From positions 59,479-83,478 of the forward strand of contig CBDDRR010000275.1 in NCBI GenBank assembly GCA_965233095.1: a DNA stretch of 24,000 nt, read 5' to 3'. This document shows positions 2,020-18,968 of the stretch, piece by piece. The notes below the pieces were generated by a model that ran no database searches, was not told the DNA's origin, and saw only the letters and a list, made by a program, of their open reading frames with translations. Both the position numbers and the translations under genes were made by a program. Position 1 is the first letter of the stretch; the number at the start of each line of letters is the position of its first letter. Source of the DNA: an uncultured bacterium. Lineage in GTDB: Bacteria; Pseudomonadota; Gammaproteobacteria; Steroidobacterales; XN24.

Positions 2020-2559
2020 TCAGCCCGGCGCAATCAAATCATTCAGCCGTTCCGACTCAACCCGCACCCGCGAGGCGAACAGGTTGCTGAAGAACAGCCC
2101 AATCACGCTCACCACCAGCCCGGCCATGGTCGCGATCATCGCGTGCGAGATGCCGTCGGCCATCGCGCGCGTGTCGCCGCCCTTGCTGAAGGCCATCGCG
2201 TCGAACACCTGCAGCATGCCCATCACGGTGCCGAGCAGGCCGAGCAGCGGCGCCATCGGCACCATCACTTTGATGATGGGCAGGCCGGATTCCAGGCCCA
2301 TGCGCAACTGGCTGATCAGCGCCGTGCGGATGCGGTGCGCGACCCAGGAGTGGCGCTCGCTGCGCGCGTTCCACCCGGCTAGGGTCGCGGCACGCACGCG
2401 CGGATAGATGCGCCACAGATACCAGAGGCGCTCGAACACGACGGTGAGCAGGACGGCACAGGCCGCGAGGATCCAGCGCGTCACCCAGCCGCCGGCATCG
2501 AGGAACTCGCCGAGCGTGTCGTACTGCTCCGTGAACGACTGGACGATCAGCTCAAGCAT
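2020..2559 (-). CDS. exbB: MotA/TolQ/ExbB proton-channel protein (short form)
   Basis: 179 aa with three TM segments and the conserved PLLGLLGTVMGMLQVF motif. Its start overlaps the upstream stop by 8 nt. Confidence 0.85.
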   Translation of the reverse strand: MLELIVQSFTEQYDTLGEFLDAGGWVTRWILAACAVLLTVVFERLWYLWRIYPRVRAATLAGWNARSERHSWVAHRIRTALISQLRMGLESGLPIIKVMVPMAPLLGLLGTVMGMLQVFDAMAFSKGGDTRAMADGISHAMIATMAGLVVSVIGLFFSNLFASRVRVESERLNDLIAPG

Positions 2560-3940
2560 GCTGGCGACCGCCTGCCGCTTCCAAGCGCTGCGCCAGCAGC
2601 CCGGCGGCCTGCTCGTCGAGAACCTGCGTGATGCTGCGCGAACGGGTCATCAGGAAGCTGTTCACGAACAGCAGCGGGATCGCGATGATGAGGCCCAGCA
2701 CGGTCGCGATCATCGCCTGCGAAATGCCGCCAGCCATGAGCTTGGGATCGCCCGCGCCGACTTCGGTGATGACCTGAAAGGTGATGATCATGCCGATCAC
2801 GGTGCCGAGCAGGCCCAGCAGCGGACCGGCGGCGACGATCATGCGCAGCAGTGACTGGAAGCGTTCCAGCTTCGGCGTCTCGCGCAGCACCGCCTCGGAC
2901 AGGCGGGTCTCCAGCACTTCCGGGTCCTGCGCGGCGTCGATCTTCAGGCTGGCGAGCACGCGGCCCAGCGGATTGTCCTCACGCGGCTGCGCCACGTCCC
3001 CCAACTGCCGCTGCACCCTCACACCCACCAGCAGCAGGTACCCGAACTGGTAGGCCGCGAGCACCGCGCCGATCACACCGATGGCGATGATGACGTAGCC
3101 CACCTCACCGCCCTGGTGGATGCGCTCCATCGTGGTGGGCCGCTCGGCGATCTTGCGCAGCAGGTCGCCGCGCGAGGGGTCGATCAGCACCGTATGCAGC
3201 CCCTCGCCGGCGGCGCTGAAATCCTCGGCAAGCCCGGACTGGCCATCGGGCTGGCGCGGCAGCAGGGCGAGTGCAGCGGTCTGTGCTTGCAAGCTCAGAT
3301 AGCCCTCCGCGGTCAGCGCCGTGAACTGGCCCACCCGGATCACCTCCGTCATCGATTTTTCTCCCAGGGCATCGAGCACCTCGGCCTGAAAGCGGACCAC
3401 CCGCCCGCTCTCGGCGGCCTCTTGTGCGTACAAGAACCAGAGCTGCTCCAGGTCGGCCACGCCCGGCACTTCGCCCGCCTGTGCGATGCGATCCAGAAAC
3501 TCGGCGCGATCCGGGTATTGCGCCGAAACCAGCGAGCCGGCGATCTGGCTGCGGAACTCGCCGGCGGACTGCGCGATCGCCGCATACATCTGCCCGCTGT
3601 CGCCCAGGCGCTCGGTCAGGCGCTTCTTGAGTTCGGCGATCTGGGCCTGGCCGGCCGCGAATTGCGCTTTTGCCTGATCGGCCCGCGCGCCGGCGGCAGC
3701 GCGATCCGCCTCGGCCTTGGCCAGCAGGGCGGCCTGCTCGTTCTTGTTGCGCAGGAAACGCTGCTCGCGTTCTGCGTTGAGCTTGGCGGCCTCCTGCGTC
3801 CCCTGGCGGATCTGCTTGAGCAGTTCGTCCATGCCTTTCTGCGAGGGCGAAGGCGCCTGCGCGTGCAAGGCTCCGGTGCCGGTGCCGAGCATCAACGCCG
3901 CCGCGATGAGCCCGCGCCAGAATGCGCAGTCACGCCTCAT
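2552..3940 (-). CDS. Long MotA/TolQ/ExbB-family protein with N-terminal periplasmic coiled-coil domain (TtpC-like)
   Basis: 462 aa. Signal peptide LIAAALMLGTGTGALHAQA, a long Ala/Gln/Lys/Glu-rich coiled-coil region, and a C-terminal ExbB core PLLGLLGTVIGMIITFQ...GGISQAMIATVLGLIIAIP. The start forms an ATGA overlap with the upstream DUF3450 gene. Confidence 0.8.
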   Translation of the reverse strand: MRRDCAFWRGLIAAALMLGTGTGALHAQAPSPSQKGMDELLKQIRQGTQEAAKLNAEREQRFLRNKNEQAALLAKAEADRAAAGARADQAKAQFAAGQAQIAELKKRLTERLGDSGQMYAAIAQSAGEFRSQIAGSLVSAQYPDRAEFLDRIAQAGEVPGVADLEQLWFLYAQEAAESGRVVRFQAEVLDALGEKSMTEVIRVGQFTALTAEGYLSLQAQTAALALLPRQPDGQSGLAEDFSAAGEGLHTVLIDPSRGDLLRKIAERPTTMERIHQGGEVGYVIIAIGVIGAVLAAYQFGYLLLVGVRVQRQLGDVAQPREDNPLGRVLASLKIDAAQDPEVLETRLSEAVLRETPKLERFQSLLRMIVAAGPLLGLLGTVIGMIITFQVITEVGAGDPKLMAGGISQAMIATVLGLIIAIPLLFVNSFLMTRSRSITQVLDEQAAGLLAQRLEAAGGRQHA

Positions 3941-4719
3941 GGCGCGGCTCCGGCCGCAGCGGCGGCAGCGACAGGCAACCTCAGCAGATCCGGCGCGGCC
4001 GTTTCCCGCGCCATGCGCAGGCCATGCCGCACCTGAGCGACGTGCTGATGCGGGAGTGCCTCCCAGGCGCCGCTGCTGCTGTTCCAGGTGCCCGCCTGCT
4101 TGCCATCGGCCGACAGGTAGTACAGCGCCGTGCGCCCCAGACGCAGCACATCGACGGTGCGGCCCTGGACCTCGGCGCGCTCGGTGCCGATCGAACGTCC
4201 GTACTCCGATTCGATCTGCCAGGCTTCCAGAAGGCGCTTGAACTTCTCGGCGTTGTTCGCCTCAGGATCGGACATGAGCTTCTTCAGCGTGTCCAGCCGC
4301 TCGCGGCGCTCGGTCGCCAGAAACGGCAGGTCCAGCGCGATGAATTTCTCCAGCCCCTCGACCATGCGCAGCATCAGCGGCAGCAGCTCGCGCTCGGTGC
4401 GCTCCATCTCGGTGATCTGACGCTCGATCGAGCTGCGTTCGCCCTCCTGCGCGGACACCAGTTCGCCGAGCTGCTTGGCATAGACCGTGAGTTGCTGCGC
4501 CTGCCAGCTCGCGGCGCGATAGCGCTCGAGCATGGACTTGGTCTGATCGTCGAGGCTATCGACCCTCTGCTGGGACGTTCTCGCGGCGCGGTTGCCATCG
4601 ACCACCGCGTCCAGCGCCTTGCCGGCAGCGTCCTGAGCCGGCGCGCAGGGCACGGCAACCGCCAGCGACAGGCCGAGCATCCGCGCGGCGACAGCCTTCC
4701 ACTTTGGGAATACGATCAT
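3937..4719 (-). CDS. DUF3450-family periplasmic protein (TtpB-like first gene of the TonB2 cluster)
   Basis: Signal peptide MIVFPKWKAVAARMLGLSLAVAVPCAPA, then coiled-coil text SIERQITEMERTERELLPLMLRMVEGLEKFIALDLPFLATERRERLDTLKKLMSDPEANNAEKFKRLLEAWQIESEYGRSIG, as recalled for DUF3450. I chose ATG at 4719, which has GGAGGAG about 12 nt upstream. The ORF track extends to 4761. Confidence 0.75.
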   Translation of the reverse strand: MIVFPKWKAVAARMLGLSLAVAVPCAPAQDAAGKALDAVVDGNRAARTSQQRVDSLDDQTKSMLERYRAASWQAQQLTVYAKQLGELVSAQEGERSSIERQITEMERTERELLPLMLRMVEGLEKFIALDLPFLATERRERLDTLKKLMSDPEANNAEKFKRLLEAWQIESEYGRSIGTERAEVQGRTVDVLRLGRTALYYLSADGKQAGTWNSSSGAWEALPHQHVAQVRHGLRMARETAAPDLLRLPVAAAAAAGAAP

Positions 4720-4825
4720 GTTCCAGGGGACTCCTCCCCGCCGACAAACGCGCGGTGGCAAGCCACCGCACTGATCGAAACTTCAATGCACGGATCCCTC
4801 TCAGGCCGGCTCGAAGTCTCTTTTA

Positions 4826-4852
4826 AATGTGCAGAGTGAGTATACGCACATT
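4826..4852. promoter_or_regulatory. Inverted repeat AATGTGC-N13-GCACATT upstream of the TonB2-type operon (possible regulator site)
   Basis: The plus strand reads aatgtgc agagtgagtatac gcacatt at 4826-4852, in the AT-richer gap between the DUF1302 stop and the DUF3450 start. Confidence 0.3.
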
Positions 4853-4918
4853 GCGATTTGCCTTTCCATCGCTCGCGCTTCCGCGCAGTGGAAACTGACC
4901 ACTGCCCGCGTCCGCACC

Positions 4919-7417
4919 TCAGAACTGGTACTTGACATAAAAGCCGAGGTTGTCGCGATCCTCGTAAAGGTTGTCCTTACCGCCGCCGAAGAAACTGTTG
5001 TAGGCGATAGTGAACGAGTAGGACTTCCCGTAGCGCGTTTCCAGCAGGAAGTTCAGGGTCTTGCGGCCTTCCACGAAATTGCCGGCCGGTCCCGGCGAGT
5101 TGCCACCGATGTCCTGTGACCAGATGAACAACGGCTGGATGCTGATTGAAGGGAACACCGACTCGTAGGCGATGCGCCCAACGATGCGATAGCCCCAGGA
5201 AAATGCATCGGCGAATGCACTACGCGGTGCCTGGTAAGGGTTGAAGCGCAGTCCGTCCGGACCCACCGAGCACGAGGGATTGGTCGAACAGGCTAGGCGC
5301 GATCCATCCGCACCACTGCCATCGGCGCCGGCGCTGGCGTGCGTGGTCGCCGTCAGCGGGCCTTCGATCTGCAGCTTGTCGAAATCCGGCATGTTGAGCA
5401 CATGGGTTGCCGCCAGTTCGTAGAGCAGGATCACCTGGTCCGCAGCAATCCAGTTCTCGTTCGGGCCGAGCACCTGCGTCGCTCCGAAGTTGTACTGTGC
5501 CACCTTTCCGGGAATCCAGCCGCGGATGTAGCTGTTCGGCGGATTCTCGCCTACCACACCGCCGCGGTAGGGCACGATGAAGTTGGGAAAGGAACGCGCC
5601 GAACCCGGCGCCGCGCCCACGACCAGATTGATTGCATCAGGGTAGGGGTTGTTGCCGCTGGCGTCGGTGAAGTTGTTGCCGTCGTAGACCACGTAGCTCC
5701 CCGCCTCGTTGAACCCGAGTCCCGCAGAGGCGCCCAGGCAACCCAGATTCCGGTCGTGGCAGCGGGTCAGAGTGGGACCGAAGGAGGCAAAGGCCAGATC
5801 GATCAGGGCAACCTGCAGCGGAAGTTTCGGTCGGTAGGACAGCTCGCCCTGCAGGGACAGCTCGCCAGCGGTGGTGGTGAAGCTGAACCCGAACATCTTC
5901 AGGTCTTCGGGGTATTCGAGCTGGATCTGGGCCGTGTCCAGCGGCACGGCGTCACTGATTTGCTGACCAGGCTGCGGCAGCAATAGTCCGCCCACGCCGC
6001 CCAGAATGGCTCCCAGGTCCAATGTCCCGGCGCCCAGATCAGCGAGCGCGCCCGGCCTCTGTGCCGCCAGAGTGACCAGATCGAGAGCCAGTTGCGATGA
6101 CGCCGACGGCGCGGTGACCGGTAGGTTTGGACACCCGGCCAGGAATTCGAGAGTGTTCGTGGCGTCGATGCCCCGGGAACTGCCCTCGCGACGGGCGCAA
6201 CTGGGATCGGTGGAATAGAAACTCACGTACGGCAGCTTCGAATGGTAGTTCATGAAGTAAGCCGCGAACTCGGTGCCGTTATTGAGTTCCTCGGCGTAAT
6301 ACTTCAGGCCGATGCCGTACTGGCCCTGGTCGCGGGCCTCGTTGTCGCCGCGCCGATCCAGGGTCAAGGTGGTTGGCGTGATCAGGGTGAGCGGGTTGTC
6401 CAGCGGCGCACCGACGTGATCGGGGTCGTCCGCCGCGCCACCGAACGCCGCGTTGACCGTACCGCGCAGATTGTCGGTACCGATGTCGACGAAGGACATG
6501 TAGCTGCCAGGCGTCGGAATCTCGACCGGGTCCCATTCGTACTGGTAGTAGATCTCGACGCCGACGTCGTTCACCAGTTCTGTGCTGAAGCGCGCCATGC
6601 CCACCGGGACGAAGAGCTCCTCCAGCAGACCGAAACCGAGCCGGTAAAGGCTGTTCGCGTTCACCGGCTGCGCCTGGTTGACGCTGTTGACGACCGCGAC
6701 CGTGCTCTGGCCCCAATTCACTGTCTGCCGGCCGAGCCGAAAGGTCAGTTCGCGTTCGCCGACAAAAGGCAGACTCCCGTAGAAATTGGCATCGAGCAGG
6801 TCGTATCTGAGCCCGATTTCTTGCGCCTCGTCTTCCGCCCGGTCACTGCGAACCGGAGCCCCAGGACCGTACACCCGCGGCAGGTACCGGTTGGACGTCG
6901 GGCTGCCGACAATACCCACGCTGCCAACGTTCTCGGCGGTGATCTGGTTGGGGTAGAAATTGCGGAAGTCGGAGTAGTTCGCCTGGTCGAAAATGCCAAG
7001 TCCTCGAACAAAGATGCCGTAGTCTCCGAAGCTGACGGTAAGGTCTTGCGAGAGCTTGAGCGGCGCCTGGATGATGTCGCCCTTGTTGTAGTTGAGATTG
7101 CCGTCGTCGAAGTTGATGGAGGCCATACCCGGCGCAGACGCCAGCCGTTGGGCGGGAAAGTTCTGCAGGCGGTGCAGGCCCTGGCAGGACTGGTAGGGAC
7201 CGGAACAAACCCCGGGATCGAGGTTGGACTTGCCGACCAGATCATTTGATCGACCCTCGATTCTCCACGCAGCGCCAAGCGTGAGGGTATTGTTCAACAC
7301 TGACGAAAAATCAAAGCCTCCTGCCGAGAAGTCGTACTCGACGGCGTTCGCGGCCGGCCCTGCGAGCAGCAACGCAGGAATGATTGACCAGCGACATGCA
7401 GACCTACTCCAAAACAT
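4919..7417 (-). CDS. DUF1302-like outer-membrane protein (predicted large beta-barrel), unusually long
   Basis: Signal peptide MFWSRSACRWSIIPALLLAGPAANA. The N-terminal text VEYDFSAGGFDFSSVLNNTLTLGAAWRIEGRSNDLVG and the C-terminal aromatic ending DRDNLGFYVKYQF match my memory of the DUF1302 family. Alternating beta-strand-like composition runs throughout. ATG 7417 has GGAGAG 5 nt upstream; the ORF-track start at 7435 is a TTG. Confidence 0.65.
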   Translation of the reverse strand: MFWSRSACRWSIIPALLLAGPAANAVEYDFSAGGFDFSSVLNNTLTLGAAWRIEGRSNDLVGKSNLDPGVCSGPYQSCQGLHRLQNFPAQRLASAPGMASINFDDGNLNYNKGDIIQAPLKLSQDLTVSFGDYGIFVRGLGIFDQANYSDFRNFYPNQITAENVGSVGIVGSPTSNRYLPRVYGPGAPVRSDRAEDEAQEIGLRYDLLDANFYGSLPFVGERELTFRLGRQTVNWGQSTVAVVNSVNQAQPVNANSLYRLGFGLLEELFVPVGMARFSTELVNDVGVEIYYQYEWDPVEIPTPGSYMSFVDIGTDNLRGTVNAAFGGAADDPDHVGAPLDNPLTLITPTTLTLDRRGDNEARDQGQYGIGLKYYAEELNNGTEFAAYFMNYHSKLPYVSFYSTDPSCARREGSSRGIDATNTLEFLAGCPNLPVTAPSASSQLALDLVTLAAQRPGALADLGAGTLDLGAILGGVGGLLLPQPGQQISDAVPLDTAQIQLEYPEDLKMFGFSFTTTAGELSLQGELSYRPKLPLQVALIDLAFASFGPTLTRCHDRNLGCLGASAGLGFNEAGSYVVYDGNNFTDASGNNPYPDAINLVVGAAPGSARSFPNFIVPYRGGVVGENPPNSYIRGWIPGKVAQYNFGATQVLGPNENWIAADQVILLYELAATHVLNMPDFDKLQIEGPLTATTHASAGADGSGADGSRLACSTNPSCSVGPDGLRFNPYQAPRSAFADAFSWGYRIVGRIAYESVFPSISIQPLFIWSQDIGGNSPGPAGNFVEGRKTLNFLLETRYGKSYSFTIAYNSFFGGGKDNLYEDRDNLGFYVKYQF

Positions 7418-7640
7418 CCTTACTCTCCATACCAAATGTTTGTTAGAACAACATCATACCGGGAATAGATTGGATTGATGCCAGTTCGGACCGGCGGGCG
7501 AAGCGCCCCGACCAGCGGGTGCCTGCCTCGTGGACGCGCTCGGGCGGTGGACGCCGTGCGCAAGCGATCAGCGTCGACCTGCGAAGCGTCGGACGCGCAG
7601 GCGCGCGACAGGATTCTCCTGCCGCCGTTCCCTTCCTACT

Positions 7641-8147
7641 TCACTTTCCAGGACTGATCGCGCCCTCGACGATCACCTTGACCGTCTGCATGCTCGAATC
7701 GATGGTCCGGTGCATGCCATCCGACCAATACACCCGCAGGCTGCGCTCGCCCGCGCTGACCGGCAGGTCGAACACGAACACGTAACGGTTTCCACCGAGC
7801 CGGATGAGCTGGTTCTCACTCGGCATCAGGGAAATACCGTCCGTTTCGATATGCAGATGAGTACCCACCACCGGCGCGCTCATGGTCAGCCGTGCCATTT
7901 CGCCGGGCGTTTCGAACACCACGGCGAGCTGCGTCCCGACCTTGGCGCCGGTCTCGGGAAACAGGATGCGCAGCGGTGGAACCTCGGTGGCACCCTTGCC
8001 CGCCGCGCCATCGGCCGGGTGTTGTCCGTGCCCTTGGTGATGGTGATGCTGATGGTGATCGTGCGCCGCGTCGCCGCCTGCCCGCGTGCCAAGCGATACG
8101 CTGCTGGCGAGCAGCGCGAGAATAAAAAGAGCGGGGGATCGTTGCAT
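7641..8147 (-). CDS. Secreted DUF4399-like protein with N-terminal poly-histidine tract (putative periplasmic metal/copper-binding protein)
   Basis: Signal peptide MQRSPALFILALLASSVSLG, then HDHHQHHHHQGHGQH. The following domain LRILFPETGAKVGTQLAVVFE...VVGTHLHIETDG...LGGNRYVFVFDLPVSAGERSLRVYWSDGMH resembles the DUF4399 G-H-H-H-L-x-x-D pattern. AGGAGA lies 6 nt upstream of the ATG, and the gene starts 18 nt after the copD-fusion stop. Confidence 0.6.
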   Translation of the reverse strand: MQRSPALFILALLASSVSLGTRAGGDAAHDHHQHHHHQGHGQHPADGAAGKGATEVPPLRILFPETGAKVGTQLAVVFETPGEMARLTMSAPVVGTHLHIETDGISLMPSENQLIRLGGNRYVFVFDLPVSAGERSLRVYWSDGMHRTIDSSMQTVKVIVEGAISPGK

Positions 8148-8165
8148 GGTTGTCTCCTGAGTGTT

Positions 8166-10127
8166 TCAGTGAATGTGATCGTCCGGGGGCGGACGCAAGC
8201 GCGGTTCGGCATTGAGCCGATCCAGTTCCGGGTACAGCCTGACGGGGTCGGTCCATCCCTCCGGGTCGTCCTGTGCAATCCAGCGCGCACGCACGTAGCC
8301 GAAACGATCGATGAGGAATTCCGCATCCGTCCAATCCATGCCCAGCCGGTCCGGCAGGCCGCGGTCGCCGACCGTGCGCGCGAGCAACTCGTAGGCGGAC
8401 CAGAGCTCGGCAGCAGCGGTGCTCAACACGGGATAAGGCAAGTCGGCAGGCAGGCGAACATCGCCCAGCGGTACCGCGAGAATCTGCGTACGGCGCGACT
8501 GGAACTCAGGCATCGCAGCGGCGAGCGTTCGCGCGCGAGCTTCGGCATGTGGTCCGCCGAGAAAGGTCAGCAAGACATTGTGTGTATCGCGATATCCCTT
8601 GAGTTCCCCCGGTCCAGGCACGCCCTCGATGTAAAAATTGATCGCCCCCAGCCAAGCCAGTCCGGGAACCACGCGGGCCTGCAGCACCCGGCTTTCGAAA
8701 CCTTGCGAGAAGGCGCGCATGAAGTTGATCAGGTCCCAGCGGTCGTCCTCGGACAGCACGGCACCCAGGGCGGGCATTCCACTGTCGGGAATACCGTGCG
8801 TGAGCCACCAGTGCATGTCCCCCGCCGTGTGCAGCGCCGTGTGCGGCTCGCTCAGATTGGCCGGCGGCTTCGGCAGCTTGGCGGCCAGCGCGCCGTCTCC
8901 AAGTCCTCCCGCGCCGTGGCAGGCCGTGCAGTGCTCGGCGAACAGCGCGCGCCCGCCGGCCACGGACAGCGTCAGATACGGCACCTGGGAGCGCCGATAG
9001 GTATTCGGATAAGCCGGGACGGCGAACGCCCAGGCCAACACGCTGGTCGCGGCTACCGCCAACAGCATTGAGGGAATGCGCAGCGTTTTACGTCGCGAGC
9101 CGGTTGCCGCGGCTCCCGCGAGGATCAAGGCTGCGAAGGCTGCCAGAAACCACACCCGCAGCGACGAATCCGGCCAGGTTGCGTCTAATGACCAGCGGAA
9201 CGGCAGCCACCACTTCGGCGCGGGCTCGTGCAGTGCTGGGGTGGTCTGCGCCAGCCAGGCTGCACAGATCAGGACGCCGGAAGCCGCGGCCAGTTCAGGG
9301 CAGAAATGACGCAAGGCCGAGGCGGCAAGGCGACGCTGACCAGTCGCCTCGCCGGCCGATCTCAGCATGGGAAGAAACCGTGTTCGCAACCGGTTGGCGA
9401 ACAGCAGCGCAAGTGCCAGCAAGCCGAGCTTTCCGAGAATCAGCGCGCCGTAGCGCGTCCCCAGCAGGTCCCCCTGCGTGTCGATGTAGAGATCCGCCAG
9501 CCAGACGCCCGTGACGACGATGACGATCATCAACACCATCGCCAACCGAGAGAATCGCTCCAGGGCGGCCGCAAGAACCGGCGTGGGCAGCGCGGACGGA
9601 TCGGCGCGAGCAAAACGTCGCACCGCCACGAACCAGGACGGCAGGGCGCCGACCCAGACCGAGATGGCGAGAACATGGATGACATTGGGCAGCATCACCT
9701 GCCAAGCCGATTCCGCGCCGGCTGCGTGTCCACCCCAGGGTCCGAGCGCGAGATACGTCGCCGCCATCGAGGCGCAAGCCCATCGCGCCCGCCCCCATGT
9801 CGTCGCCACGAGCGCCGACAACAGCAGCAGGACGGCGACGCTGCCGCGTATCCGCCACACTCGCCCGACATGGGTGCCGTTGATCAGGCTTTCCCAATCG
9901 GTCGAACCGGAGCCGAGGGGGGCGAGCGAGAGCGCCTGGGCCCACATCAGGCCGGCATGGCCCAGAACCACCAGACCGACGGCGATCAGCAGGGGCAGCG
10001 CCGCGCGCAGGGCTGCACGCTGCGGATCCATCCGGGCGCACCATAGGCTGAAGCAGGTCGAACCGATGATCCACGCTGCGCCGGCCGTCGCGATGAGTCG
10101 AGAGGCCGCGGACAGGAATTCGATCAC
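8166..10127 (-). CDS. copD: Fusion protein: CopD-family polytopic membrane domain + mono-haem cytochrome c domain + Cys-less thioredoxin/TlpA/SCO-like domain
   Basis: 653 aa. Residues 1 to about 375 carry many TM helices with CopD-like text. CTACH (nt 8916-8930) plus a downstream GIPDSGMPA gives a c-type haem site with a Met ligand. The C-terminus NVLLTFLGGPHAEARARTL...AEFLIDRFGYVRARW looks like a thioredoxin-fold protein in which the CxxC position reads GPHA. GTG start at 10127, 7 nt after the copC stop. Confidence 0.75.
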   Translation of the reverse strand: MIEFLSAASRLIATAGAAWIIGSTCFSLWCARMDPQRAALRAALPLLIAVGLVVLGHAGLMWAQALSLAPLGSGSTDWESLINGTHVGRVWRIRGSVAVLLLLSALVATTWGRARWACASMAATYLALGPWGGHAAGAESAWQVMLPNVIHVLAISVWVGALPSWFVAVRRFARADPSALPTPVLAAALERFSRLAMVLMIVIVVTGVWLADLYIDTQGDLLGTRYGALILGKLGLLALALLFANRLRTRFLPMLRSAGEATGQRRLAASALRHFCPELAAASGVLICAAWLAQTTPALHEPAPKWWLPFRWSLDATWPDSSLRVWFLAAFAALILAGAAATGSRRKTLRIPSMLLAVAATSVLAWAFAVPAYPNTYRRSQVPYLTLSVAGGRALFAEHCTACHGAGGLGDGALAAKLPKPPANLSEPHTALHTAGDMHWWLTHGIPDSGMPALGAVLSEDDRWDLINFMRAFSQGFESRVLQARVVPGLAWLGAINFYIEGVPGPGELKGYRDTHNVLLTFLGGPHAEARARTLAAAMPEFQSRRTQILAVPLGDVRLPADLPYPVLSTAAAELWSAYELLARTVGDRGLPDRLGMDWTDAEFLIDRFGYVRARWIAQDDPEGWTDPVRLYPELDRLNAEPRLRPPPDDHIH

Positions 10128-10134
10128 CCCGGCC

Positions 10135-10515
10135 TCAGGGCAGGCTTAATTTGAACCCGTAGCCGTAATCCACGACATGGCCATCGACCGACAGAACACG
10201 ATACTTGATCGTGTAGCTTCCGCCGGGCAGCGAATCGACCGACGCAGTCAGACAGGCGGGCTTTTGCGGGTCGGCCTTCAGCTCACCGAGCGGAATCTCG
10301 GTGCCATCGGCGTTGTACAAGCTGACCTTGGAAAACTTCGCTTCGACGTTTTCGTTGAAACACAATCTAATTTCTTTCGGAGCCGCGGCCAGCACTGCAC
10401 GCCGGCCGGGTTCCGAACTGACCAGCCCTGCATGCGCGAACACAGCAGATCCGTAAGCGCCGAGCGAGCATGCGATGAGTAGCCAAAAAGCCATGCGGGG
10501 TGACTGCGTCCTCAT
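10135..10515 (-). CDS. copC: Periplasmic copper-binding protein CopC (Cu(II)-site-only type: N-terminal His plus D-x-H; no Met-rich Cu(I) site)
   Basis: Signal peptide ending VFA, then HAGLVSSEP. The SVDGHVV motif matches the D-x-H ligands of CopC. The mature protein contains no Met. The start makes an ATGA overlap with the upstream gene; an alternative start is Met8 at 10494. Confidence 0.85.
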   Translation of the reverse strand: MRTQSPRMAFWLLIACSLGAYGSAVFAHAGLVSSEPGRRAVLAAAPKEIRLCFNENVEAKFSKVSLYNADGTEIPLGELKADPQKPACLTASVDSLPGGSYTIKYRVLSVDGHVVDYGYGFKLSLP

Positions 10516-11123
10516 GTTGCTTTAGCTTTAGCTTTAGCTTTAGCTGTCTTGCGACCGGTGAGTCGATAAGCCAGTCCTGCGAGCGCGAAAACGATCATGA
10601 AGGCGGGGGCGTAGCGCCACAGGCTGTGCACGCCGACCTTGAACGGGAACACCGAGTGCAACAACGTGCCGGTGGCTGGATCCTTGGCGGTGATCATCCC
10701 GATGTACCAGCCCGGCGCATCGAAGCCCTGATCGAAGGTCAGCGTGCCTCGCGGATACACCTGCGGCGGCACGTGGATCAGGGTGGCTGCTGCGATGTCC
10801 GCCGGCGTTCCGAGGTCTTCGTAGCGTCCCCGCGACTTTAGATCCTTAGTATCTCTGAGCACGCGGAACTCGACTTCATACTGACGCAGCGCGGCGCTGA
10901 CGTAGTCAATGACAATGATGGCGCGCCCGAGTTCCGGGATGTCTTCGCAGAACTCCTGCGTCGCGCGCTTTTCCGGCTGGTAGCCGGTGAAATGCGCGGT
11001 CATCGCACCGATCTTCATGATGCAATTGTCGTCTTCCATGGACACGCCGCCGTGCGCGCCTGCAGGCGCGGTTGCGAGCACGGCGGACCCGAACACCAGG
11101 ACGCGGGCGAGACGACGCATCAT
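10512..11123 (-). CDS. PmoD/AmoD-like membrane-anchored periplasmic protein (putative copper protein)
   Basis: 203 aa from the ATG at 11123, which overlaps the pmoB TGA by 1 nt. Signal peptide MMRRLARVLVFGSAVLATAPAGA, mature N-terminus HGG, cluster DDNCIMKIGAMTAHF, and a second Cys in QEFCEDIPE. There is one C-terminal TM helix (YAPAFMIVFALAGLAYRL) and a KAKAKAKA tail. Architecture and position after pmoCAB match PmoD. Sequence-level homology was not verified. Confidence 0.55.
   Translation of the reverse strand: MMRRLARVLVFGSAVLATAPAGAHGGVSMEDDNCIMKIGAMTAHFTGYQPEKRATQEFCEDIPELGRAIIVIDYVSAALRQYEVEFRVLRDTKDLKSRGRYEDLGTPADIAAATLIHVPPQVYPRGTLTFDQGFDAPGWYIGMITAKDPATGTLLHSVFPFKVGVHSLWRYAPAFMIVFALAGLAYRLTGRKTAKAKAKAKAT
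10519..10545 (-). repeat. Hexanucleotide tandem repeat (GCTTTA)x4 plus a partial unit, encoding the (Lys-Ala)n C-terminal tail of the PmoD-like protein
   Basis: The plus strand reads gcttta gcttta gcttta gcttta gct. The minus-strand sense is GCT AAA GCT AAA GCT AAA GCT AAA GCA ACA TGA, giving AKAKAKAKAT*. Confidence 0.9.
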
Positions 11124-12361
11124 CAGCTCTTGCTCATACCGAAGTCGGGAATCATGGGGCCGCCAAATTCCACCAAGTGCCGCTTGCCGCCTTCCTCGAA
11201 GAAGAACAGCACGCCGGCCACGACCGCATCCGGCGAGGAAATCATGGTGGTCATGCGCTCGGTTTCCCACATGGCGTCGTCGGCGTAGATCACGACGCGC
11301 TGAGTGGCTCCCGCAGCAACCGGCCCACCTTCCACGCGCAGGGCATCGGAAGCCACCAGGTCGTGCTCGTCCTTGGGTTTGACGTCGAGCACCTTGGCGT
11401 TGATGAAGCGCAGGTTGCCGGCGGCGAATTCGCCGATGGTCACCTGGCGATCACTGTTGTTGATGACGTCGAATTCCATCCTGAAGCTGCGGCCGGGAAT
11501 ACGGTACCGGGCTTCGATGAGCTTGATGGAGATCGGGGTCGGCGGCTGATCGAGCGGGGGAACGTCGATCTTGCCGGTCTGGAGAGGGGTGGTGATGGGC
11601 CATTTTTCCTGGGCGTAGACATAGCCGCCGACGATCAGGCTCAGGGTCAGCACCAGGAAGATGCCGCCGATGCGCCGGTCCATCGGGGTGATCATCTGAT
11701 CGGCCTCGACGCCCAGTTCTGCGGTGCGCTTGAAGCGGGGCACGACGATGGGGCACTTGGTCAGCCAGTAAATGAACCAGGACAGGCCCACCGCAAACCA
11801 CAGCGCGGACCAGAACATGACGTTGCCCAGGCCGTAGGTTTCCAGATCGATGGTTTCGCCAAGCAGGGTCTTGGCGGTGTTCTGGAAGGCCGCTTCGTCG
11901 CCCGCCACTTCGACCCACATGCCGGGGCCGATCATGGGGCCGGCGCCTTCGACATTGATGACGGTGTGGACGTGATAACGACCCACCTTGCGCGCCTTGA
12001 GCGTGATCTCGAAATCGTAGGTCTCGCCCTTGCGAAACGAAGTGGAGCGGATCATCGGCACGCCGTTGACGCGCGAGTCCAGACGCACAAACGCAGGGCC
12101 GGGCACGCCGATGTTGAGGAAGGCCGTTTCCTCGATCGAGTTCACATGGTGCGGCCAGTACTTCGACGGCATGAACTTGCCGCTGATCTTGACGATGTCG
12201 TTGATGGCCAGCTTGGAAGCGGAGGCCTGCACGTCGATCCAGTGAACCGTGCGCATGCGCAACTGCGGCATCTGCGCGCGTTCGCCGTGCGCTAGCAACG
12301 TCGGGGTGTAGCCCGCGCACAGTGCGAGCAGCGGAAGCAGAAAAGCACGTAGGAGTTTCAT
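11123..12361 (-). CDS. pmoB: Copper membrane monooxygenase subunit B (PmoB/AmoB family)
   Basis: Signal peptide MKLLRAFLLPLLALCAGYTPTLLA, then HGERAQMPQLRMRTVHW. Also RYHVHTVINVEGAGPMIGPG, two central TM helices, and C-terminal cupredoxin text IEARYRIPGRSFRMEFDVINN...GVLFFFEEGG. This is closely parallel to Methylococcus PmoB as I recall it. ATG 12361 preferred over the ORF-track start at 12406. Confidence 0.93.
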   Translation of the reverse strand: MKLLRAFLLPLLALCAGYTPTLLAHGERAQMPQLRMRTVHWIDVQASASKLAINDIVKISGKFMPSKYWPHHVNSIEETAFLNIGVPGPAFVRLDSRVNGVPMIRSTSFRKGETYDFEITLKARKVGRYHVHTVINVEGAGPMIGPGMWVEVAGDEAAFQNTAKTLLGETIDLETYGLGNVMFWSALWFAVGLSWFIYWLTKCPIVVPRFKRTAELGVEADQMITPMDRRIGGIFLVLTLSLIVGGYVYAQEKWPITTPLQTGKIDVPPLDQPPTPISIKLIEARYRIPGRSFRMEFDVINNSDRQVTIGEFAAGNLRFINAKVLDVKPKDEHDLVASDALRVEGGPVAAGATQRVVIYADDAMWETERMTTMISSPDAVVAGVLFFFEEGGKRHLVEFGGPMIPDFGMSKS

Positions 12362-12371
12362 GGTCGCGCCC

Positions 12372-13145
12372 TCAGACGATCTTCCGGATCCAGAGTGCCT
12401 TGGCACCCAGGTAGCCGATCCACAGCCAGAACCAGTAGTTCATGATGTTCAGGAATCCGGCGAACACTGCCGTCAGCGGCGTCACCGCTGACCCGAAGGT
12501 TCTGAGCGTTGACTCCTCGATGATGCGGACGTATTCGGGAATCGCCGTGCGGATGTACTCGTAGCCCATGAGATCGGCCACAGTAAGCATGGTGCCGTTG
12601 AGTTCCAACGGCACCTGGAACGGCGCCAGCATCGACCAGTTGAGCGGGTAGATCAGCAGACCGAAGGCAAACCCGCCGAACAGCCCGGTCCAGAAGAAGC
12701 TGCGAGTGAGCAGCAGCATGCAGTCCAGAATCAGACCCAGCCCGATGTAGGTCGAGGGCCACACGAAGTTCATCGGGAAATCCGCGAACAGATAAAAATT
12801 GAGATAGCGGCTGATCCAGGCCGCGAGGGTCAGGCACAGGATCGTGAGCGTCCCGCCCAGCGGCAAACGAAGCTTGTCCCACAGCAGAAACCCGAACACT
12901 CCCGGCAGTACTGAGAGCGCCAGCGGCGTCACCAGCGGCCACCAGCGGCGGTCGCGCCAGTCCACCCAGTAATCCCAGTCGCCGACGAGCAGGGCGAAGT
13001 GAAAACTGAAGATGCCCATGAACAGCAGCACGATCAGGGGGATGACCAGCAGGTCCGCCTGGACGTAGGCCTTGTGCTGCTCTTTTGACGAGCTGAGCCC
13101 GTAAGCACCCGAGGCAGAACTGTCGAGATCATCTACGGCTTTCAT
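12372..13145 (-). CDS. pmoA: Copper membrane monooxygenase subunit A (PmoA/AmoA family)
   Basis: The hallmark GDWDYWVDWRDRRWWPLVTPL, plus multi-TM text through TAIPEYVRIIEESTLRTFG. GGAGG lies 5 nt upstream of ATG 13145. Confidence 0.93.
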   Translation of the reverse strand: MKAVDDLDSSASGAYGLSSSKEQHKAYVQADLLVIPLIVLLFMGIFSFHFALLVGDWDYWVDWRDRRWWPLVTPLALSVLPGVFGFLLWDKLRLPLGGTLTILCLTLAAWISRYLNFYLFADFPMNFVWPSTYIGLGLILDCMLLLTRSFFWTGLFGGFAFGLLIYPLNWSMLAPFQVPLELNGTMLTVADLMGYEYIRTAIPEYVRIIEESTLRTFGSAVTPLTAVFAGFLNIMNYWFWLWIGYLGAKALWIRKIV

Positions 13146-13286
13146 GGGGGCCTCCGCCTCAAAGCGTCAAGCAGAAAGCCCGCGAGCGGGACAGCCTGAT
13201 TTCCGCGTTTCTAATTATTCACGCAATGTTCTGACCGCCCGCGAGCGGTCAAGTCGTAAAGCGTCGCGTTAGTCTCGTCGCTCTCC

Positions 13287-13314
13287 GGCGAGGGCGCCGA
13301 GGGGCGCCCTCGCC
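13287..13314 (-). other. Perfect 12-bp GC-rich stem with 4-nt loop in the pmoC-pmoA intergenic region (RNA stem-loop; processing, stability or attenuation element)
   Basis: ggcgagggcgcc gagg ggcgccctcgcc; the arms are exact reverse complements. It starts 23 nt downstream of the pmoC stop. No U-run follows on the transcribed strand. Confidence 0.5.
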
Positions 13315-13337
13315 TGACGCAAGACCAAGGATCGTTA

Positions 13338-14132
13338 TCAGGCTGCTGCTGTGACTGCCATCGCCTTCGCCGATTCCACCCTCGGCGCGGGCTCACCGAT
13401 CACCTTGGTCAGTTCGACGACCCGGGTGAGGATCTGCACCACCAGTCCGCCGGCCGCAAACGTGGCCCAGCCGAGCAGCACGAAGCCCCAGTGAATCGGC
13501 GCGGCGAACAGTTCCTCGGCGTAGAAGAACGTGTGACCCCATTCGTTCAGCCCCAGGTTGGGCATGATCATGATCGGCCCTGCAACCACCAGCGCAAACG
13601 GCAGGGACAGCTTGTTCGCGAACTGTGGCAGCCGTGTACGGGCGTAGGCGAACGCCGCCACACCGCTCATGATGAACATGGGAATGCCGAAGTAGAACAG
13701 CGTGATGTGGGTGGGCGTGAAATCGGTATCGCGCACCGTCACCTGATGCCAGGCCGCATCCGCCTCGGTGAACGGCGACGCCGTCAGATAGGCCACGATC
13801 GCGAAGATCATGATGTACCCGAGCAGCACGAAGTAGCGTCGCAGCTCCTCGACCGGCGCGAGCTTGTCCAACTGGCGATCACGCGTGTGCCAGATCCATC
13901 CGACGATTCCCGTGCCCATCGCGACCAGCACCGGCAACTGGATATACAGCAGCATCATCCAAGTGCTCTGGAATTCCGGCGAAAAGTAGTCGAGCCCAAC
14001 AGTGAAGGCGGTAGCGTTTTGATACAGCCGGTAGCCGGTGTAAAGCATTCCAACTCCGACCAGAATCAGGAAAAGCTTGGCCCAGGGAGCCGTGGGGGAC
14101 TGGTATGTCGTGCTTTGGCTGACGGAACTCAT
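13338..14132 (-). CDS. pmoC: Copper membrane monooxygenase subunit C (PmoC/AmoC family)
   Basis: DAAWHQVTVRDTDFTPTH and NEWGHTFFYAEELFAAPIHWGF are signature PmoC motifs. AGGAGG (plus strand cctcct 14141-14146) lies 8 nt upstream of ATG 14132. The ORF-track start at 14180 has no such site. Confidence 0.93.
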   Translation of the reverse strand: MSSVSQSTTYQSPTAPWAKLFLILVGVGMLYTGYRLYQNATAFTVGLDYFSPEFQSTWMMLLYIQLPVLVAMGTGIVGWIWHTRDRQLDKLAPVEELRRYFVLLGYIMIFAIVAYLTASPFTEADAAWHQVTVRDTDFTPTHITLFYFGIPMFIMSGVAAFAYARTRLPQFANKLSLPFALVVAGPIMIMPNLGLNEWGHTFFYAEELFAAPIHWGFVLLGWATFAAGGLVVQILTRVVELTKVIGEPAPRVESAKAMAVTAAA

Positions 14133-14205
14133 GATGTAAACCTCCTGACCTGGATGGCGACCCGATTCTGCGCGCTTCACCAGCTAGGGCGCTGGCGACG
14201 ATCAG

Positions 14206-14235
14206 ACCATAATTGAGCTTACATGGAAAAGTCAA
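14206..14235 (-). promoter_or_regulatory. Candidate sigma70-type promoter for pmoC (TTGACT-N18-TATGGT on the minus strand)
   Basis: The minus-strand reading is ctaTTGACTtttccatgtaagctcaatTATGGTctg. It lies in the AT-richer divergent intergenic region, about 70 nt upstream of the pmoC ATG. The 18-nt spacer and imperfect -10 make this tentative. Confidence 0.35.
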
Positions 14236-14253
14236 TAGCAGATAGCTCTGCTA
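14236..14253. promoter_or_regulatory. Perfect 6-bp inverted repeat TAGCAG-N6-CTGCTA abutting the candidate pmoC -35 (possible operator)
   Basis: The plus strand reads tagcag atagct ctgcta at 14236-14253, directly adjacent to the TTGACT element. Confidence 0.3.
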
Positions 14254-14480
14254 CGCACATTGCTATCGTCCTGGATTTCGATCGGACCCGCCTATTTAGT
14301 AGTGCGCAGTACGTACATTCACTATATTATTTGTCGTCCTGATCGCGCCGATGTGCAGAACGTCGTTACCGCACTATCTAACAAACGCTTGACTGATTTA
14401 TTGTGGGCGAATGAACCCTATGAGCCTTATATGAACCTTAGTGGTCCGCAATCGCTTCCTCCTCACATGGAGACTCGTAC

Positions 14481-15938
14481 GTGAACGCTCCCTCGAAGAT
14501 TCCGGTGCCCAGCACGCCGGTCCAGGACCCGCTGGCAGAACGGGTGTTAGCCACTTTCGAGGCGCAGCGGCCCACCGCTCTGCGCTGGCGCACATCCACC
14601 GCCGTGGAGCGGATCGAACGTATCCGCAGACTGCGCGACGCGGTTCTGGCGGCAGCACCCGCCATTCGCGCCGCGGCGGCGGCCGACTTCCGCAAGCCGG
14701 AAGTCGAAGTGGACCTGACGGAAATCTTCACCGTCGTATCCGAAGCGAACATGGCCATGCGCAGACTCAAGCGCTGGATGAAGCCGACTCGCGTCGGGTT
14801 CTCGCCGCTGATGGCCGGCACTCAGGGACGCATCGAATACCAGCCGCGCGGCCGCTGCCTGATCGTTTCGCCGTGGAATTACCCGGTGAATCTCAGCTTC
14901 TGCCCGCTGGTGCTGGCGCTCGCCGCCGGCAACACCGCCATCGTAAAACCTTCAGAGATGACGCCACATCTGTCGGCGCAGATGCAGACAATCATCGACG
15001 CGACGTTTCCTGCAGAAGAAGTCGCGCTGTTCCAGGGCGACGCAGAACTCGCCAAGACCCTGCTCGACCTTCCCTTCGACCACATTTTTTTCACCGGGGC
15101 ACCCGCCCTGGGCAAGGTGGTGATGGCTGCCGCTTCGCACCATCTCACCAGCGTCACCCTGGAGTTGGGCGGCAAGAGCCCGACCATCATCGACGCCAGC
15201 GCCGACCTCAAGGCGGCCGCGCACAACGTGTGCTGGTCCAAGTTCATGAACAACGGGCAGACCTGCATCGCGCCCGATCACCTGTTTGTACACGCCTCGG
15301 TCGCCGACGAGTTCCTGGACCTGCTGCGCCAGCGGCTGGCGGAAGTCTTCGGCAAGGATGACGAGGCGCGTTTCCTGTCGCCCGATCTCGCGCGCATCGT
15401 CAACGCCCGCCACACCTCCCGCGTGCGGCGACTGCTGGACGATGCGCGTCAGCGTGGCGCAACCGTCGCCGTCGGTGGTGACGTGCGGGAAGAGCACTGC
15501 TACGTCTCACCAACGATCCTGGAACGAGTGCCGGACGACGCCGCCATCCTGCGGGAAGAGATCTTCGGGCCGCTGCTGCCGGTGATCCGGTTTGGCGAAC
15601 TCGACGAGGTCATCGACAGTATCAACGGCGGCGAAAAGCCGCTCGCGCTGTACATCTGGGGCAAGGACCGTGCACGCATCCGCCGCGTGCTGGACCGCAC
15701 CTCCTCGGGTGGCGCCTGCGTCAACAACACCGTCGTGCAGGCCCTGCACCCACTGCTGCCGTTCGGTGGCGTCAACCATTCAGGCCTTGGCAGCACGCAT
15801 GGCGAGTTCGGCTTCCGCACGTTCTCACACGCTCGCGCCGTCGCCGATACCCGCATCGGGCTGGTTCGGATGTTCTATCCACCCTACACCGAACGCGTGA
15901 AGCGCCTCATCGCGATGACCTTGCGCTGGTTCGCATAG
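14481..15938 (+). CDS. NAD(P)+-dependent aldehyde dehydrogenase (class-3 / fatty or coniferyl aldehyde dehydrogenase-like)
   Basis: 485 aa. ELGGKSP (general-base Glu) and NNGQTCIAPDH (catalytic Cys). GTG start with GGAGA 7 nt upstream. Confidence 0.85.
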   Translation: MNAPSKIPVPSTPVQDPLAERVLATFEAQRPTALRWRTSTAVERIERIRRLRDAVLAAAPAIRAAAAADFRKPEVEVDLTEIFTVVSEANMAMRRLKRWMKPTRVGFSPLMAGTQGRIEYQPRGRCLIVSPWNYPVNLSFCPLVLALAAGNTAIVKPSEMTPHLSAQMQTIIDATFPAEEVALFQGDAELAKTLLDLPFDHIFFTGAPALGKVVMAAASHHLTSVTLELGGKSPTIIDASADLKAAAHNVCWSKFMNNGQTCIAPDHLFVHASVADEFLDLLRQRLAEVFGKDDEARFLSPDLARIVNARHTSRVRRLLDDARQRGATVAVGGDVREEHCYVSPTILERVPDDAAILREEIFGPLLPVIRFGELDEVIDSINGGEKPLALYIWGKDRARIRRVLDRTSSGGACVNNTVVQALHPLLPFGGVNHSGLGSTHGEFGFRTFSHARAVADTRIGLVRMFYPPYTERVKRLIAMTLRWFA

Positions 15939-18141: not shown

Positions 18142-18966
18142 ATGAAACTCGCAGGCAAGGTGGCACTCGTCACCGGATCAGGTCGCGGCATCGGCCGTGA
18201 AATCGCACTCAAGCTCGCCTCGGAAGGCGCGGACGTGGTGGTCAACGACCTCGACGCGGCGCCCGCGGAAGAAACCGTCGCCGCCATCAAGGCCCTGGGC
18301 CGCAAGGCCATCGCCTGCCCCGGCAGCGTGACGGAAAAGGGTTTCGCCGAACGTTTCGTCAACACCGCCATCGAACAGCTCGGTGGCCTCGACATCATCG
18401 TCAACAACGCCGGCTACACCTGGGACAACGTCATTCACAAGATGAGCGATGAGCAGTGGCACGCGATCATGGACGTGCATGTCACCGCACCGTTCCAGAT
18501 CCTGCGAGCTGCCTCGGAATATCTGCGCGTGCAGACCAAGAAGGAGGCGATGGAAGGCCGCGAGGTGTTCCGCAAGGTCGTGAACATCTCTTCGATCGCC
18601 GGCACCAGCGGCAATGCGGGCCAGGCCAACTACTCGGCGGGCAAGGCGGCGGTCATCGGCCTGACCAAGGCCATGTCCAAGGAATGGGGCCGCTACAAGG
18701 TCAACGTCAACTGCGTGGCGTTTGGCCTGATCAAGACGCGCCTCACGGAAGCGGCTGCGGGTACCGACGCGAGCATCGACGTCGAAGGACGCAAGATCAA
18801 GGTCGGCGTCAACCCGGATCTGCTCAAGACGATGGAAGCCACCGTGCCCCTGGGCCGCGCCGGAACGCCGGTCGAGGCGGCAGGCTCGGTGTATCTGTTC
18901 TGCATCCCGGAATCCAACTACGTCAGCGGACAAGTGCTGATCTGCGGTGGCGGCTTCTCGATGTGA
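18142..18966 (+). CDS. Short-chain dehydrogenase/reductase (3-hydroxyacyl-CoA dehydrogenase / FabG-like)
   Basis: LVTGSGRGIGREIA (TGxxxGIG), NNAG, and YSAGK (YxxxK). Confidence 0.85.
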   Translation: MKLAGKVALVTGSGRGIGREIALKLASEGADVVVNDLDAAPAEETVAAIKALGRKAIACPGSVTEKGFAERFVNTAIEQLGGLDIIVNNAGYTWDNVIHKMSDEQWHAIMDVHVTAPFQILRAASEYLRVQTKKEAMEGREVFRKVVNISSIAGTSGNAGQANYSAGKAAVIGLTKAMSKEWGRYKVNVNCVAFGLIKTRLTEAAAGTDASIDVEGRKIKVGVNPDLLKTMEATVPLGRAGTPVEAAGSVYLFCIPESNYVSGQVLICGGGFSM

Positions 18967-18968
18967 GC

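Follow-up and report, generated by a model that had tools for sequence, protein, structure and literature searches.

Two questions are open for the copper membrane monooxygenases (CuMMOs), the family of methane, ammonia and alkane enzymes: the source of their copper and the source of their electrons. The genes of these enzymes can lie in extended operons with copper-handling genes, in the order pmoCAB-pmoD-copC-copD-pCuAC in alphaproteobacterial methanotrophs and amoCABED-copCD in betaproteobacterial ammonia oxidisers (PMC6189053). The CopD-type importer YebZ of Escherichia coli depends on two histidines, H135 and H154, whose mutation reduces or abolishes copper uptake, and about 4% of proteobacterial CopDs, including that of Methylosinus trichosporium OB3b, have a cytochrome cbb3-type domain linked to a C-terminal Sco1/thioredoxin-like domain (PMC11923076, 2025). 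The need for a dedicated or localised cupric reductase in CopD-type import was raised as an open point for Bacillus subtilis YcnJ (PMC13344008). Full-text literature searches found no study of the extra domains of the CopD-cytochrome proteins.

The window analysed here is a stretch of 24,000 nucleotides (nt) from an uncultured gammaproteobacterium of the Steroidobacterales (contig CBDDRR010000275.1, positions 59,479 to 83,478), whose minus strand carries at positions 8166-10127 a copD gene fused to a cytochrome c and a Cys-less thioredoxin-fold domain. This fusion gene is real and is the standard copD of a CuMMO operon, and its extra module bears on both questions. The favoured reading, which falls just short of being probable, is a haem-driven copper redox step and hand-off at the periplasmic face of the CopC/CopD pathway serving the monooxygenase. 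The conserved histidines of CopD, the CopC partner, the CxxCH motif with Met451, the His-x-His tails and the synteny with the CuMMO genes all support it.

Architecture of the fused CopD

The gene and its parts are the following (aa, amino acids; TM, transmembrane):

8166..10127, minus strand: fusion copD gene, 653 aa, GTG start and TGA stop, encoding CopD, two extra TM helices, cytochrome c and a Cys-less thioredoxin-fold domain
9237..10127, minus strand: CopD core, aa 1-297, eight TM helices (Pfam, NCBIfam, conservation, model)
9012..9236, minus strand: periplasmic segment TPALHE..WWLPFRWS, followed by TM9 and TM10, through which the chain comes back to the periplasm (conservation, topology, model)
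8697..9005, minus strand: class I cytochrome c domain, aa 375-477 (Pfam, conservation, structure comparison)
8193..8696, minus strand: Cys-less thioredoxin-fold domain, aa 478-645 (AlphaFold2 model, Foldseek, conservation)
8169..8192, minus strand: tail PPPDDHIH-COOH, candidate copper-binding arm with H651 and H653 (conservation)

The N-terminal eight helices are, as judged from alignment and conservation, a CopD-type copper permease that retains both uptake histidines of YebZ. The Pfam CopD family (PF05425) matches aa 187-292 with 62.2 bits against a cutoff of 32.1, which places the protein in the family, and the NCBIfam copper_CopD alignment spans aa 5-297 with 100 bits, under the equivalog cutoff of 195. 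H134 (nt 9726-9728) and H151 (nt 9675-9677), which align with H135 and H154 of YebZ, are invariant among 105 full-length sequences, and the same holds for H300, W306 and R311 in the loop after helix 8. The other marks of the family are also present: the protein has at least eight TM helices (ten in this case) with two periplasm-facing histidines (H134 and H151), and an adjacent copC gene, kept in most related loci, stops 7 nt ahead of the GTG. A GAGG sequence lies 7 nt upstream of this GTG and directly abuts the copC stop. A tblastn search against 72,556 plasmids gave nothing at E<=1e-8, so that the family is not of the plasmid Pco/Cop resistance type. An open reading frame (ORF) of 513 aa antisense to the fusion gene (7530-9071, plus strand) is presumed to be one of the spurious long ORFs usual in high-GC DNA.

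Ten membrane segments are recognised by hydropathy, and the K/R-rich loops at aa 30-37, 109-114, 168-194, 245-274 and 342-353 all fall on the same side of the membrane. Since these loops share one face, the positive-inside rule and the ten-helix model predict a periplasmic position for the entire cytochrome/thioredoxin part as well as for the N-terminus and the conserved loop that follows helix 8, a prediction that agrees with the placement proposed in the initial annotation of the gene. The full-length model, built from 105 sequences, has a predicted local distance difference test score (pLDDT) of 93, a predicted TM-score (pTM) of 0.87 and ten long helices; it suggests that the CopD, cytochrome and thioredoxin-like parts pack as one rigid unit in a fixed arrangement.

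The cytochrome domain has Cytochrom_C and Cytochrome_CBB3 Pfam matches at aa 390-471 of 47.4 and 44.6 bits, both over cutoff (21.3 for Cytochrom_C). The haem c site that had been annotated is found exactly where it was placed, with CTACH at nt 8916-8930 (C400, C403, H404) and the GMPA region at nt 8769-8780, in which the axial ligand would be Met451 (nt 8775-8777). C400, C403, H404, M451 and P452 are invariant in the full-length set, CxxCH occurs in every one of the 170 proteins that have a complete C-terminal domain and a length of 600 aa or more, and C400 and C403 are the sole Cys residues of the fusion protein outside the membrane part. The features of a class I cytochrome c are in place, namely CxxCH with a distal Met about 40-50 residues downstream and, by prediction (ten TM helices with the K/R-rich loops opposite), a location on the periplasmic side as haem c attachment demands. 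Haem c is a predicted cofactor of this domain, and covalent attachment is expected from the motif. Two further histidines of the domain, H429 (nt 8841-8843) and H433 (nt 8829-8831), are invariant as well.

The closest solved structure to the haem domain is CytC552 of Thioalkalivibrio paradoxus (PDB 7O9U, 9VR0; E about 1e-15), to which the model of the domain is 40% identical with a root-mean-square deviation of 1.8 A. In vitro CytC552 accepts the electrons of the tri-copper thiocyanate dehydrogenase; it has an exposed haem and His-rich termini, and its His83, beside a haem propionate, was modelled as an electron gateway from copper (PMC9456337). Counted from the alignment offsets, on the assumption that the numbering of the paper equals the chain index, His83 corresponds to H429 and His87 to H433. 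The two proteins have in common a ..PPxAxLxE(P)HxxxHxxGD.. segment and the MP segment of the axial Met, and CytC552 likewise is the partner of a copper centre and has His-rich termini; in contrast, it is a soluble, free-standing acceptor from thiocyanate dehydrogenase, with no fusion to a membrane or thioredoxin-fold part. On account of this kinship the haem domain can be placed, on sequence grounds, in the small group of cytochromes c known to interact with copper centres.

The fusion is not the product of a frameshift or sequencing error joining separate genes. An artefact of two or three genes joined through sequencing or assembly error could draw on the split versions present in some nitrifiers; against it stand the continuous frame of the ORF, the confident single-chain model and the CopD plus cytochrome c architecture shared by 120 out of 120 homologues listed, mostly about 650 aa long. 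These homologues come from independent assemblies and from isolate genomes (Sinimarinibacterium flocculans, Panacagrimonas perspica, Bradyrhizobium spp., Solimonas aquatica), and a metagenome-assembled genome (MAG) of Panacagrimonas sp. (order Nevskiales) holds a 99%-identical copy of the fusion protein. The artefact, whose probability is negligible, is already refuted.

The Cys-less thioredoxin fold and the terminal histidines

For the C-terminal 179 aa no Pfam model passed its threshold, the AhpC-TSA family (PF00578) reaching E=0.043 and 14.2 bits against a cutoff of 26. The AlphaFold2 model of the domain, obtained from 22 family sequences with a pLDDT of 87, had 419 matches in the PDB at E<=0.001 by Foldseek, all of them to thioredoxin folds of the ResA/TlpA/DsbE, peroxiredoxin and glutathione peroxidase (GPx) kinds, with a best TM-score of 0.73 (E about 2e-6) to ResA and related chains. 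The three parts of the initial annotation are thus all present, CopD and cytochrome c with Pfam matches over cutoff and the third, sub-threshold in the profile searches, with a fold that comes from the model.

The annotation had read GPHA at the usual CxxC position, held cysteine redox chemistry to be impossible and offered the His as a metal ligand; the first two points stood and the third did not. In a profile alignment (hhalign, 94% probability) C74-E-P-C77 of B. subtilis ResA falls on G525-P-H-A528 (nt 8544-8555), and the same alignment places E80 of ResA on the invariant R531. Over the CxxC region no alignment column shows Cys in more than 2 of 219 family sequences, a near-absence by which thiol chemistry is excluded across the whole family. 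H527 of GPHA is kept in only 5 of the 219.

A role of the domain as a working thiol peroxidase, as a reductase of the TlpA/ResA type or as a Sco copper chaperone of the canonical kind is therefore very improbable. The fold does resemble ResA, TlpA-like proteins, peroxiredoxins and GPx; precomputed AhpC-TSA matches exist on some homologues, and one source labels a homologue 'peroxiredoxin'. However, the domain is free of Cys here and nearly so, column by column, in the family, the AhpC-TSA match lies below the Pfam cutoff, and no Pro stands ahead of the FLID strand, the position of the cis-Pro in ResA. As regards the single families, the thioredoxin-like fold of TlpA/ResA/DsbE is present without the CxxC active site; both the peroxidatic Cys and an above-cutoff Pfam match, as expected of a peroxiredoxin, are lacking; and neither the CxxxC with distal His nor the Pfam match of SCO1/SenC is found. 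SCO1-SenC was not among the three Pfam families matching the whole protein at E<=0.01, nor was it listed for the C-terminal fragments, and the same tool gave 159.8 bits for a true SCO1 in one related locus (L056). Thiol chemistry for the domain was rejected as refuted by the sequence, which has no Cys.

The residues that are invariant or nearly so in the thioredoxin fold are R513, R531, Y579, R584, D607, R608, G610, R613, R615, W616 and E641; the core has many invariant Arg and aromatic residues and no conserved His, Cys or Met. The conserved candidate ligands, to judge from the alignments, are instead the terminal H651 and H653 together with H429 and H433 of the cytochrome domain. H651 and H653 are among the invariant residues of the full-length set, in which the conserved end reads ...PPPDDHxH, and of the 218 proteins whose C-terminal domain is complete, 205 finish precisely with HxH. 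A subgroup with Nitrospira members carries beyond this end a tail rich in Met and His, such as ..GGMMHDMSGGMGGMRM, a motif typical of Cu(I)-binding segments. The swap of one copper-ligand tail for another is the best sequence argument for copper handling by the flexible tail.

Among the Nitrospira-type homologues, P0307, P0312, P0313, P0317, P0320 and P0323 carry in place of the HxH end, or beyond it, a tail rich in Met and His (such as DTSGGMMHDMSGGMGGMRM). They are about 540 aa long, with a CopD part that is apparently shortened, and the gene of one of them (L061) is preceded not by amo genes but by a pair encoding a PAS histidine kinase and a response regulator. The short form of Nitrosospira Nsp5 ends in HVH and a Nitrosomonas form with a Pfam CopD domain ends in EYIK; a coupling of the HxH end to the fused CopD domain was considered and dropped, the correlation not being clean.

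The composition of the core also bears on the view that the extra domains are structural or regulatory only, as a platform in the periplasm on which CopC, PmoD or the His-rich protein encoded downstream would dock, or as a redox sensor gating CopD, with no copper chemistry. The invariant Arg and aromatic residues, in a core devoid of conserved His, Cys and Met, are interface-like, and the full-length model is rigid. Yet the invariant CxxCH, Met and H429/H433 and the costly maturation of haem c argue for electron transfer, and the copper-ligand motifs at the terminus are either retained or exchanged for others of their kind, so that this view is distinctly unlikely.

Operon, related loci and nitrifier forms

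The neighbours of the fusion gene in the window are the following:

11123..14180, minus strand: divergent CuMMO, with xmoC at 13338-14180, xmoA at 12372-13145 and xmoB at 11123-12406 (Pfam/NCBIfam)
10512..11123, minus strand: PmoD/AmoD-like protein with a C-terminal TM helix (PDB 6CPD PmoD, E=4.5e-14; synteny), probable start at M50/M51 of the listed ORF
10135..10515, minus strand: copC, periplasmic Cu(II)-binding protein, predicted mature N-terminus His, D-G-H motif
7641..8147, minus strand: secreted His-rich protein of 168 aa, directly downstream of the fusion gene and conserved, AGGAG 6 nt before the ATG

The gene order on the minus strand is hence xmoCAB-pmoD-copC-copD*-(His-rich), where copD* is the fusion gene, with tight junctions and Shine-Dalgarno sequences; the likely ATG of the PmoD homologue shares one base with the xmoB stop codon. 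Neither XmoA nor XmoC reaches the NCBIfam AmoA/AmoC and TIGR cutoffs, which makes the enzyme a divergent CuMMO. The His-rich protein has a His-rich N-terminus (HDHHQHHHHQGHGQH) and a conserved domain of about 110 aa with G-T-H-L-H; its homologues have His/Met-rich N-termini, and its gene follows the fusion gene in most related loci. The searches gave for it only weak sub-threshold DUF4399 matches (E 0.005-0.05, in four of six homologues), and a recognisable PCuAC was rejected, nothing beyond these matches being found; the protein may take the place of the PCuAC of methanotroph operons.

Some other features of the window lie beside this operon. The PmoD homologue has a C-x6-M-x2-H motif (NCIMKIGAMTAHF), the aligned segment of 6CPD being C-x7-M-x-H. 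On the other side of the CuMMO, the plus-strand genes at 14481-15938, 18456-20126 and 22177-23331 encode an aldehyde dehydrogenase and two acyl-CoA dehydrogenases, which fit hydrocarbon rather than ammonia or methane oxidation. Downstream of the operon, the minus strand at 2552-7435 encodes an outer-membrane protein with DUF1302 (838 aa) along with a DUF3450 protein and one of the MotA/ExbB family, a set that could be an uptake system; DUF1302 is also found near the fusion gene in loci L010, L020 and L021.

The co-occurrence of the fusion with CuMMO operons, whose frequency the initial annotation proposed to survey, proved strong in a scan of one genome per species, in which the loci encoding the C-terminal domain were collected and their fetched flanks examined. 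Fifty-six such loci were found, and 38 of them have xmoCAB, a pmoD-like gene and copC within the flanks, mostly in the same order and across the Alpha-, Beta- and Gammaproteobacteria; among the others, 9 are cut by contig ends and 8 have full flanks with no CuMMO. The carrier organisms belong to the Nevskiales, the Burkholderiales and the Hyphomicrobiales, Bradyrhizobium being among the last. In two Bradyrhizobium loci the neighbours of copC, the fusion gene and the His-rich gene encode a pyrroloquinoline quinone (PQQ) alcohol dehydrogenase, a molybdenum hydroxylase and a cytochrome c protein.

Four loci deserve separate mention. Positions 3852-14567 of a Bradyrhizobium manausense locus (L014) carry the copC, fusion and His-rich genes with no xmoCAB nearby, the neighbours being instead a solute-binding/cytochrome c fusion, a PQQ alcohol dehydrogenase and a molybdenum hydroxylase. 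In an Aestuariivirga MAG (L056, 8034-10510) the true SCO1/SenC gene already mentioned directly precedes a distant family member of 611 aa, in the place of copC, and there is neither copC nor a CuMMO within 10 kb. The MAG of Panacagrimonas sp. SAW216 apparently has two CuMMO operons (L001 and L020), each with its own fused CopD, whose C-terminal domains are about 43% identical.

The operon can also be set against the opposite direction of electron flow, that is copper oxidation or redox buffering, in which the haem would take an electron from periplasmic Cu(I) and the Cu(II) would go to CopC/PmoD, or toxic Cu(I) would be removed in a CueO-like manner. CytC552 of T. paradoxus accepts electrons from Cu(I) centres (PMC9456337) and CopC family members of the same type bind Cu(II) (PMC8689200). 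This option is of low probability for several reasons: the module is fused to an importer, and the operon contains no multicopper oxidase or efflux genes, while the sequence does not reveal the direction of electron flow. Cytoplasmic copper is Cu(I), which also counts against it, and Met-rich tails, on the other side, favour Cu(I) capture.

A search seeded with a distant member led to proteins of Nitrosomonas, Nitrosospira and Nitrospira that have both the cytochrome and the thioredoxin-like part. Some of these proteins are complete at about 345-380 aa, start at the conserved loop before helix 9 and have no CopD core. A genuine ammonia monooxygenase (AMO) operon, with AmoA and AmoB over the NCBIfam cutoffs, consists of amoCAB, a 225-aa gene and an AmoD-like gene, both AmoD/E-like, and then the following:

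L059 8001-9104 and L060 4522-5625: standalone 367-aa module of two TM helices, cytochrome c and thioredoxin-like domain

This module ends in ..PPEVYVR, without HxH, and neither copC nor copD is present alongside it in that operon. From its standalone occurrence there, the haem/thioredoxin module is an independent unit, with a tie to the monooxygenase and not to CopD alone.

The nitrifier form feeds the main rival, in which the protein is an electron-input module: a membrane-anchored cytochrome c would pass electrons of the pool to PmoD, a CuA-like cupredoxin, and/or to the CuMMO, much as cytochrome c feeds CuA in cytochrome c oxidase, and CopD would be mainly an anchor or have a second function. 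Along with the 2-TM module behind amoCAB and amoD-like genes in a true ammonia-oxidising bacterium, with no copC/copD, it is favoured by the strict operon linkage with xmoCAB and pmoD, by a closest solved cytochrome that is the redox partner of a copper enzyme, by the CuA-like site that PmoD forms in vitro (PMC6189053) and by the unresolved physiological reductant of particulate methane monooxygenase and AMO, for which, in the case of AMO, cytochromes c552/c554 were suggested (PMC13058606). Nevertheless, the fused forms strictly keep the CopD histidines and the CopC partner, which speaks for copper handling, the conserved copper-ligand tails are unnecessary for pure electron transfer, no CuMMO lies within 10 kb of six family members (L014, L015, L047, L049, L052, L056), and the copCD mutant of M. 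trichosporium was reported as mildly affected only. On balance electron input is possible and unlikely. A wider version, in which the module would be the missing periplasmic electron entry of CuMMOs, from the cytochrome pool through CuA-like PmoD/AmoD to the enzyme, with the tail assembling or repairing the copper relay, is rather unlikely and is kept open because the standalone module follows amoCAB and amoD-like genes in a true ammonia oxidiser.

Proposed copper redox and hand-off in comparison with known systems

In the favoured reading of copper redox and hand-off, Cu(II) held by CopC would be passed to the periplasmic face of the fusion protein, where the haem, reduced by the periplasmic cytochrome c pool, would give one electron, most likely converting Cu(II) to Cu(I), as the initial annotation suggested. 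The His-x-His tail, and possibly H429/H433 near the haem, would hold the ion meanwhile, and the ion would then either enter CopD at the H134/H151 site and be imported or go on to PmoD or the monooxygenase. The thioredoxin fold would be a Sco-like scaffold past thiol chemistry, which positions the tail and docks partners. The kinship with CytC552 and the SCO1/SenC neighbour of the Aestuariivirga family member were also counted for this reading.

Several points weigh against it. When tightly held by CopC, Cu(II) may oxidise a typical high-potential cytochrome c only poorly. The tail is of low confidence in the full-length model, with a pLDDT of 60 for the last few residues, to which the uncertainty is confined, the rest of the model being confident. 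Some nitrifier homologues lack both the HxH end and the CopD domain, and one of them lies in an amo operon without copC/copD, which shows that the haem/thioredoxin module can work without a fused importer. In addition, uptake of copper and the copper switch were, according to reviews, not critically impaired in the M. trichosporium OB3b copCD mutant (PMC7558416, PMC6849597).

A gene usually dismissed as "copD" thus carries a haem domain and a thioredoxin fold in modified form, both kept in three proteobacterial classes and in nitrifiers, and labels such as "CopD family protein" and "peroxiredoxin" hide a redox module, which is a warning for annotation. The region of aa 375-653 is a concrete soluble, expressible target for copper reduction or electron delivery, and the new details combined make a testable case for a redox step in the copper handling or the electron supply of CuMMOs.

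The likeness to cupric reductases associated with copper delivery, such as CcoG of Rhodobacter capsulatus and the Fre/STEAP reductases with Ctr1, lies only in the proposed logic of a membrane redox protein that makes Cu(I) beside a transporter or an assembly line; there is no sequence or cofactor relationship to the fusion protein, CcoG relying on Fe-S clusters and Fre/STEAP on haem b and flavin. YebZ/YobA of E. coli and YcnJ of B. subtilis have in common with it the CopD core with both essential histidines and the adjoining CopC partner gene with an N-terminal His Cu(II) site. In contrast, YebZ has 8 helices without a periplasmic redox domain, where the fusion protein has 10 helices and a cytochrome, and its similarity to the latter is low (25% over 199 aa, pairwise E=0.072); YcnJ adds CopC and YtkA domains and no cytochrome. 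The relation to ResA/TlpA/DsbE, peroxiredoxins and Sco1 consists in a thioredoxin-like fold with an N-terminal beta-hairpin extension and in GPHA at the CxxC position. Unlike these proteins, the fusion domain is without Cys, cis-Pro or the Sco pattern of His ligands, has the invariant Arg531 where ResA has Glu80, and bears an extra C-terminal helix and the His-x-His tail.

The nearest described relatives are the CopDs of the subgroup that includes M. trichosporium OB3b, to which the window protein belongs by having CopD, cytochrome and C-terminal Sco1/thioredoxin-like domain in one chain; OB3b CopD, compared by description only, shares the three-part architecture and the place in a pmoCAB/xmoCAB-pmoD-copC-copD operon. 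The novelty implied by the initial annotation, which knew of no characterised example, is therefore modest, because the architecture has been on record in print since 2025 (PMC11923076), and it holds in so far as the extra domains are still uncharacterised. The published account is one sentence from a sequence-network survey and mentions neither the loss of Cys nor the HxH and Met-rich ends, nor the link with CytC552 and the forms that stand alone in nitrifiers. What the present locus and its relatives add to the described subgroup is that Cys was lost across the family, that the chain ends in HxH or a Met-rich tail, that its cytochrome is akin to CytC552, that 38 of 56 loci are linked to CuMMO operons and that nitrifiers have a free-standing form.

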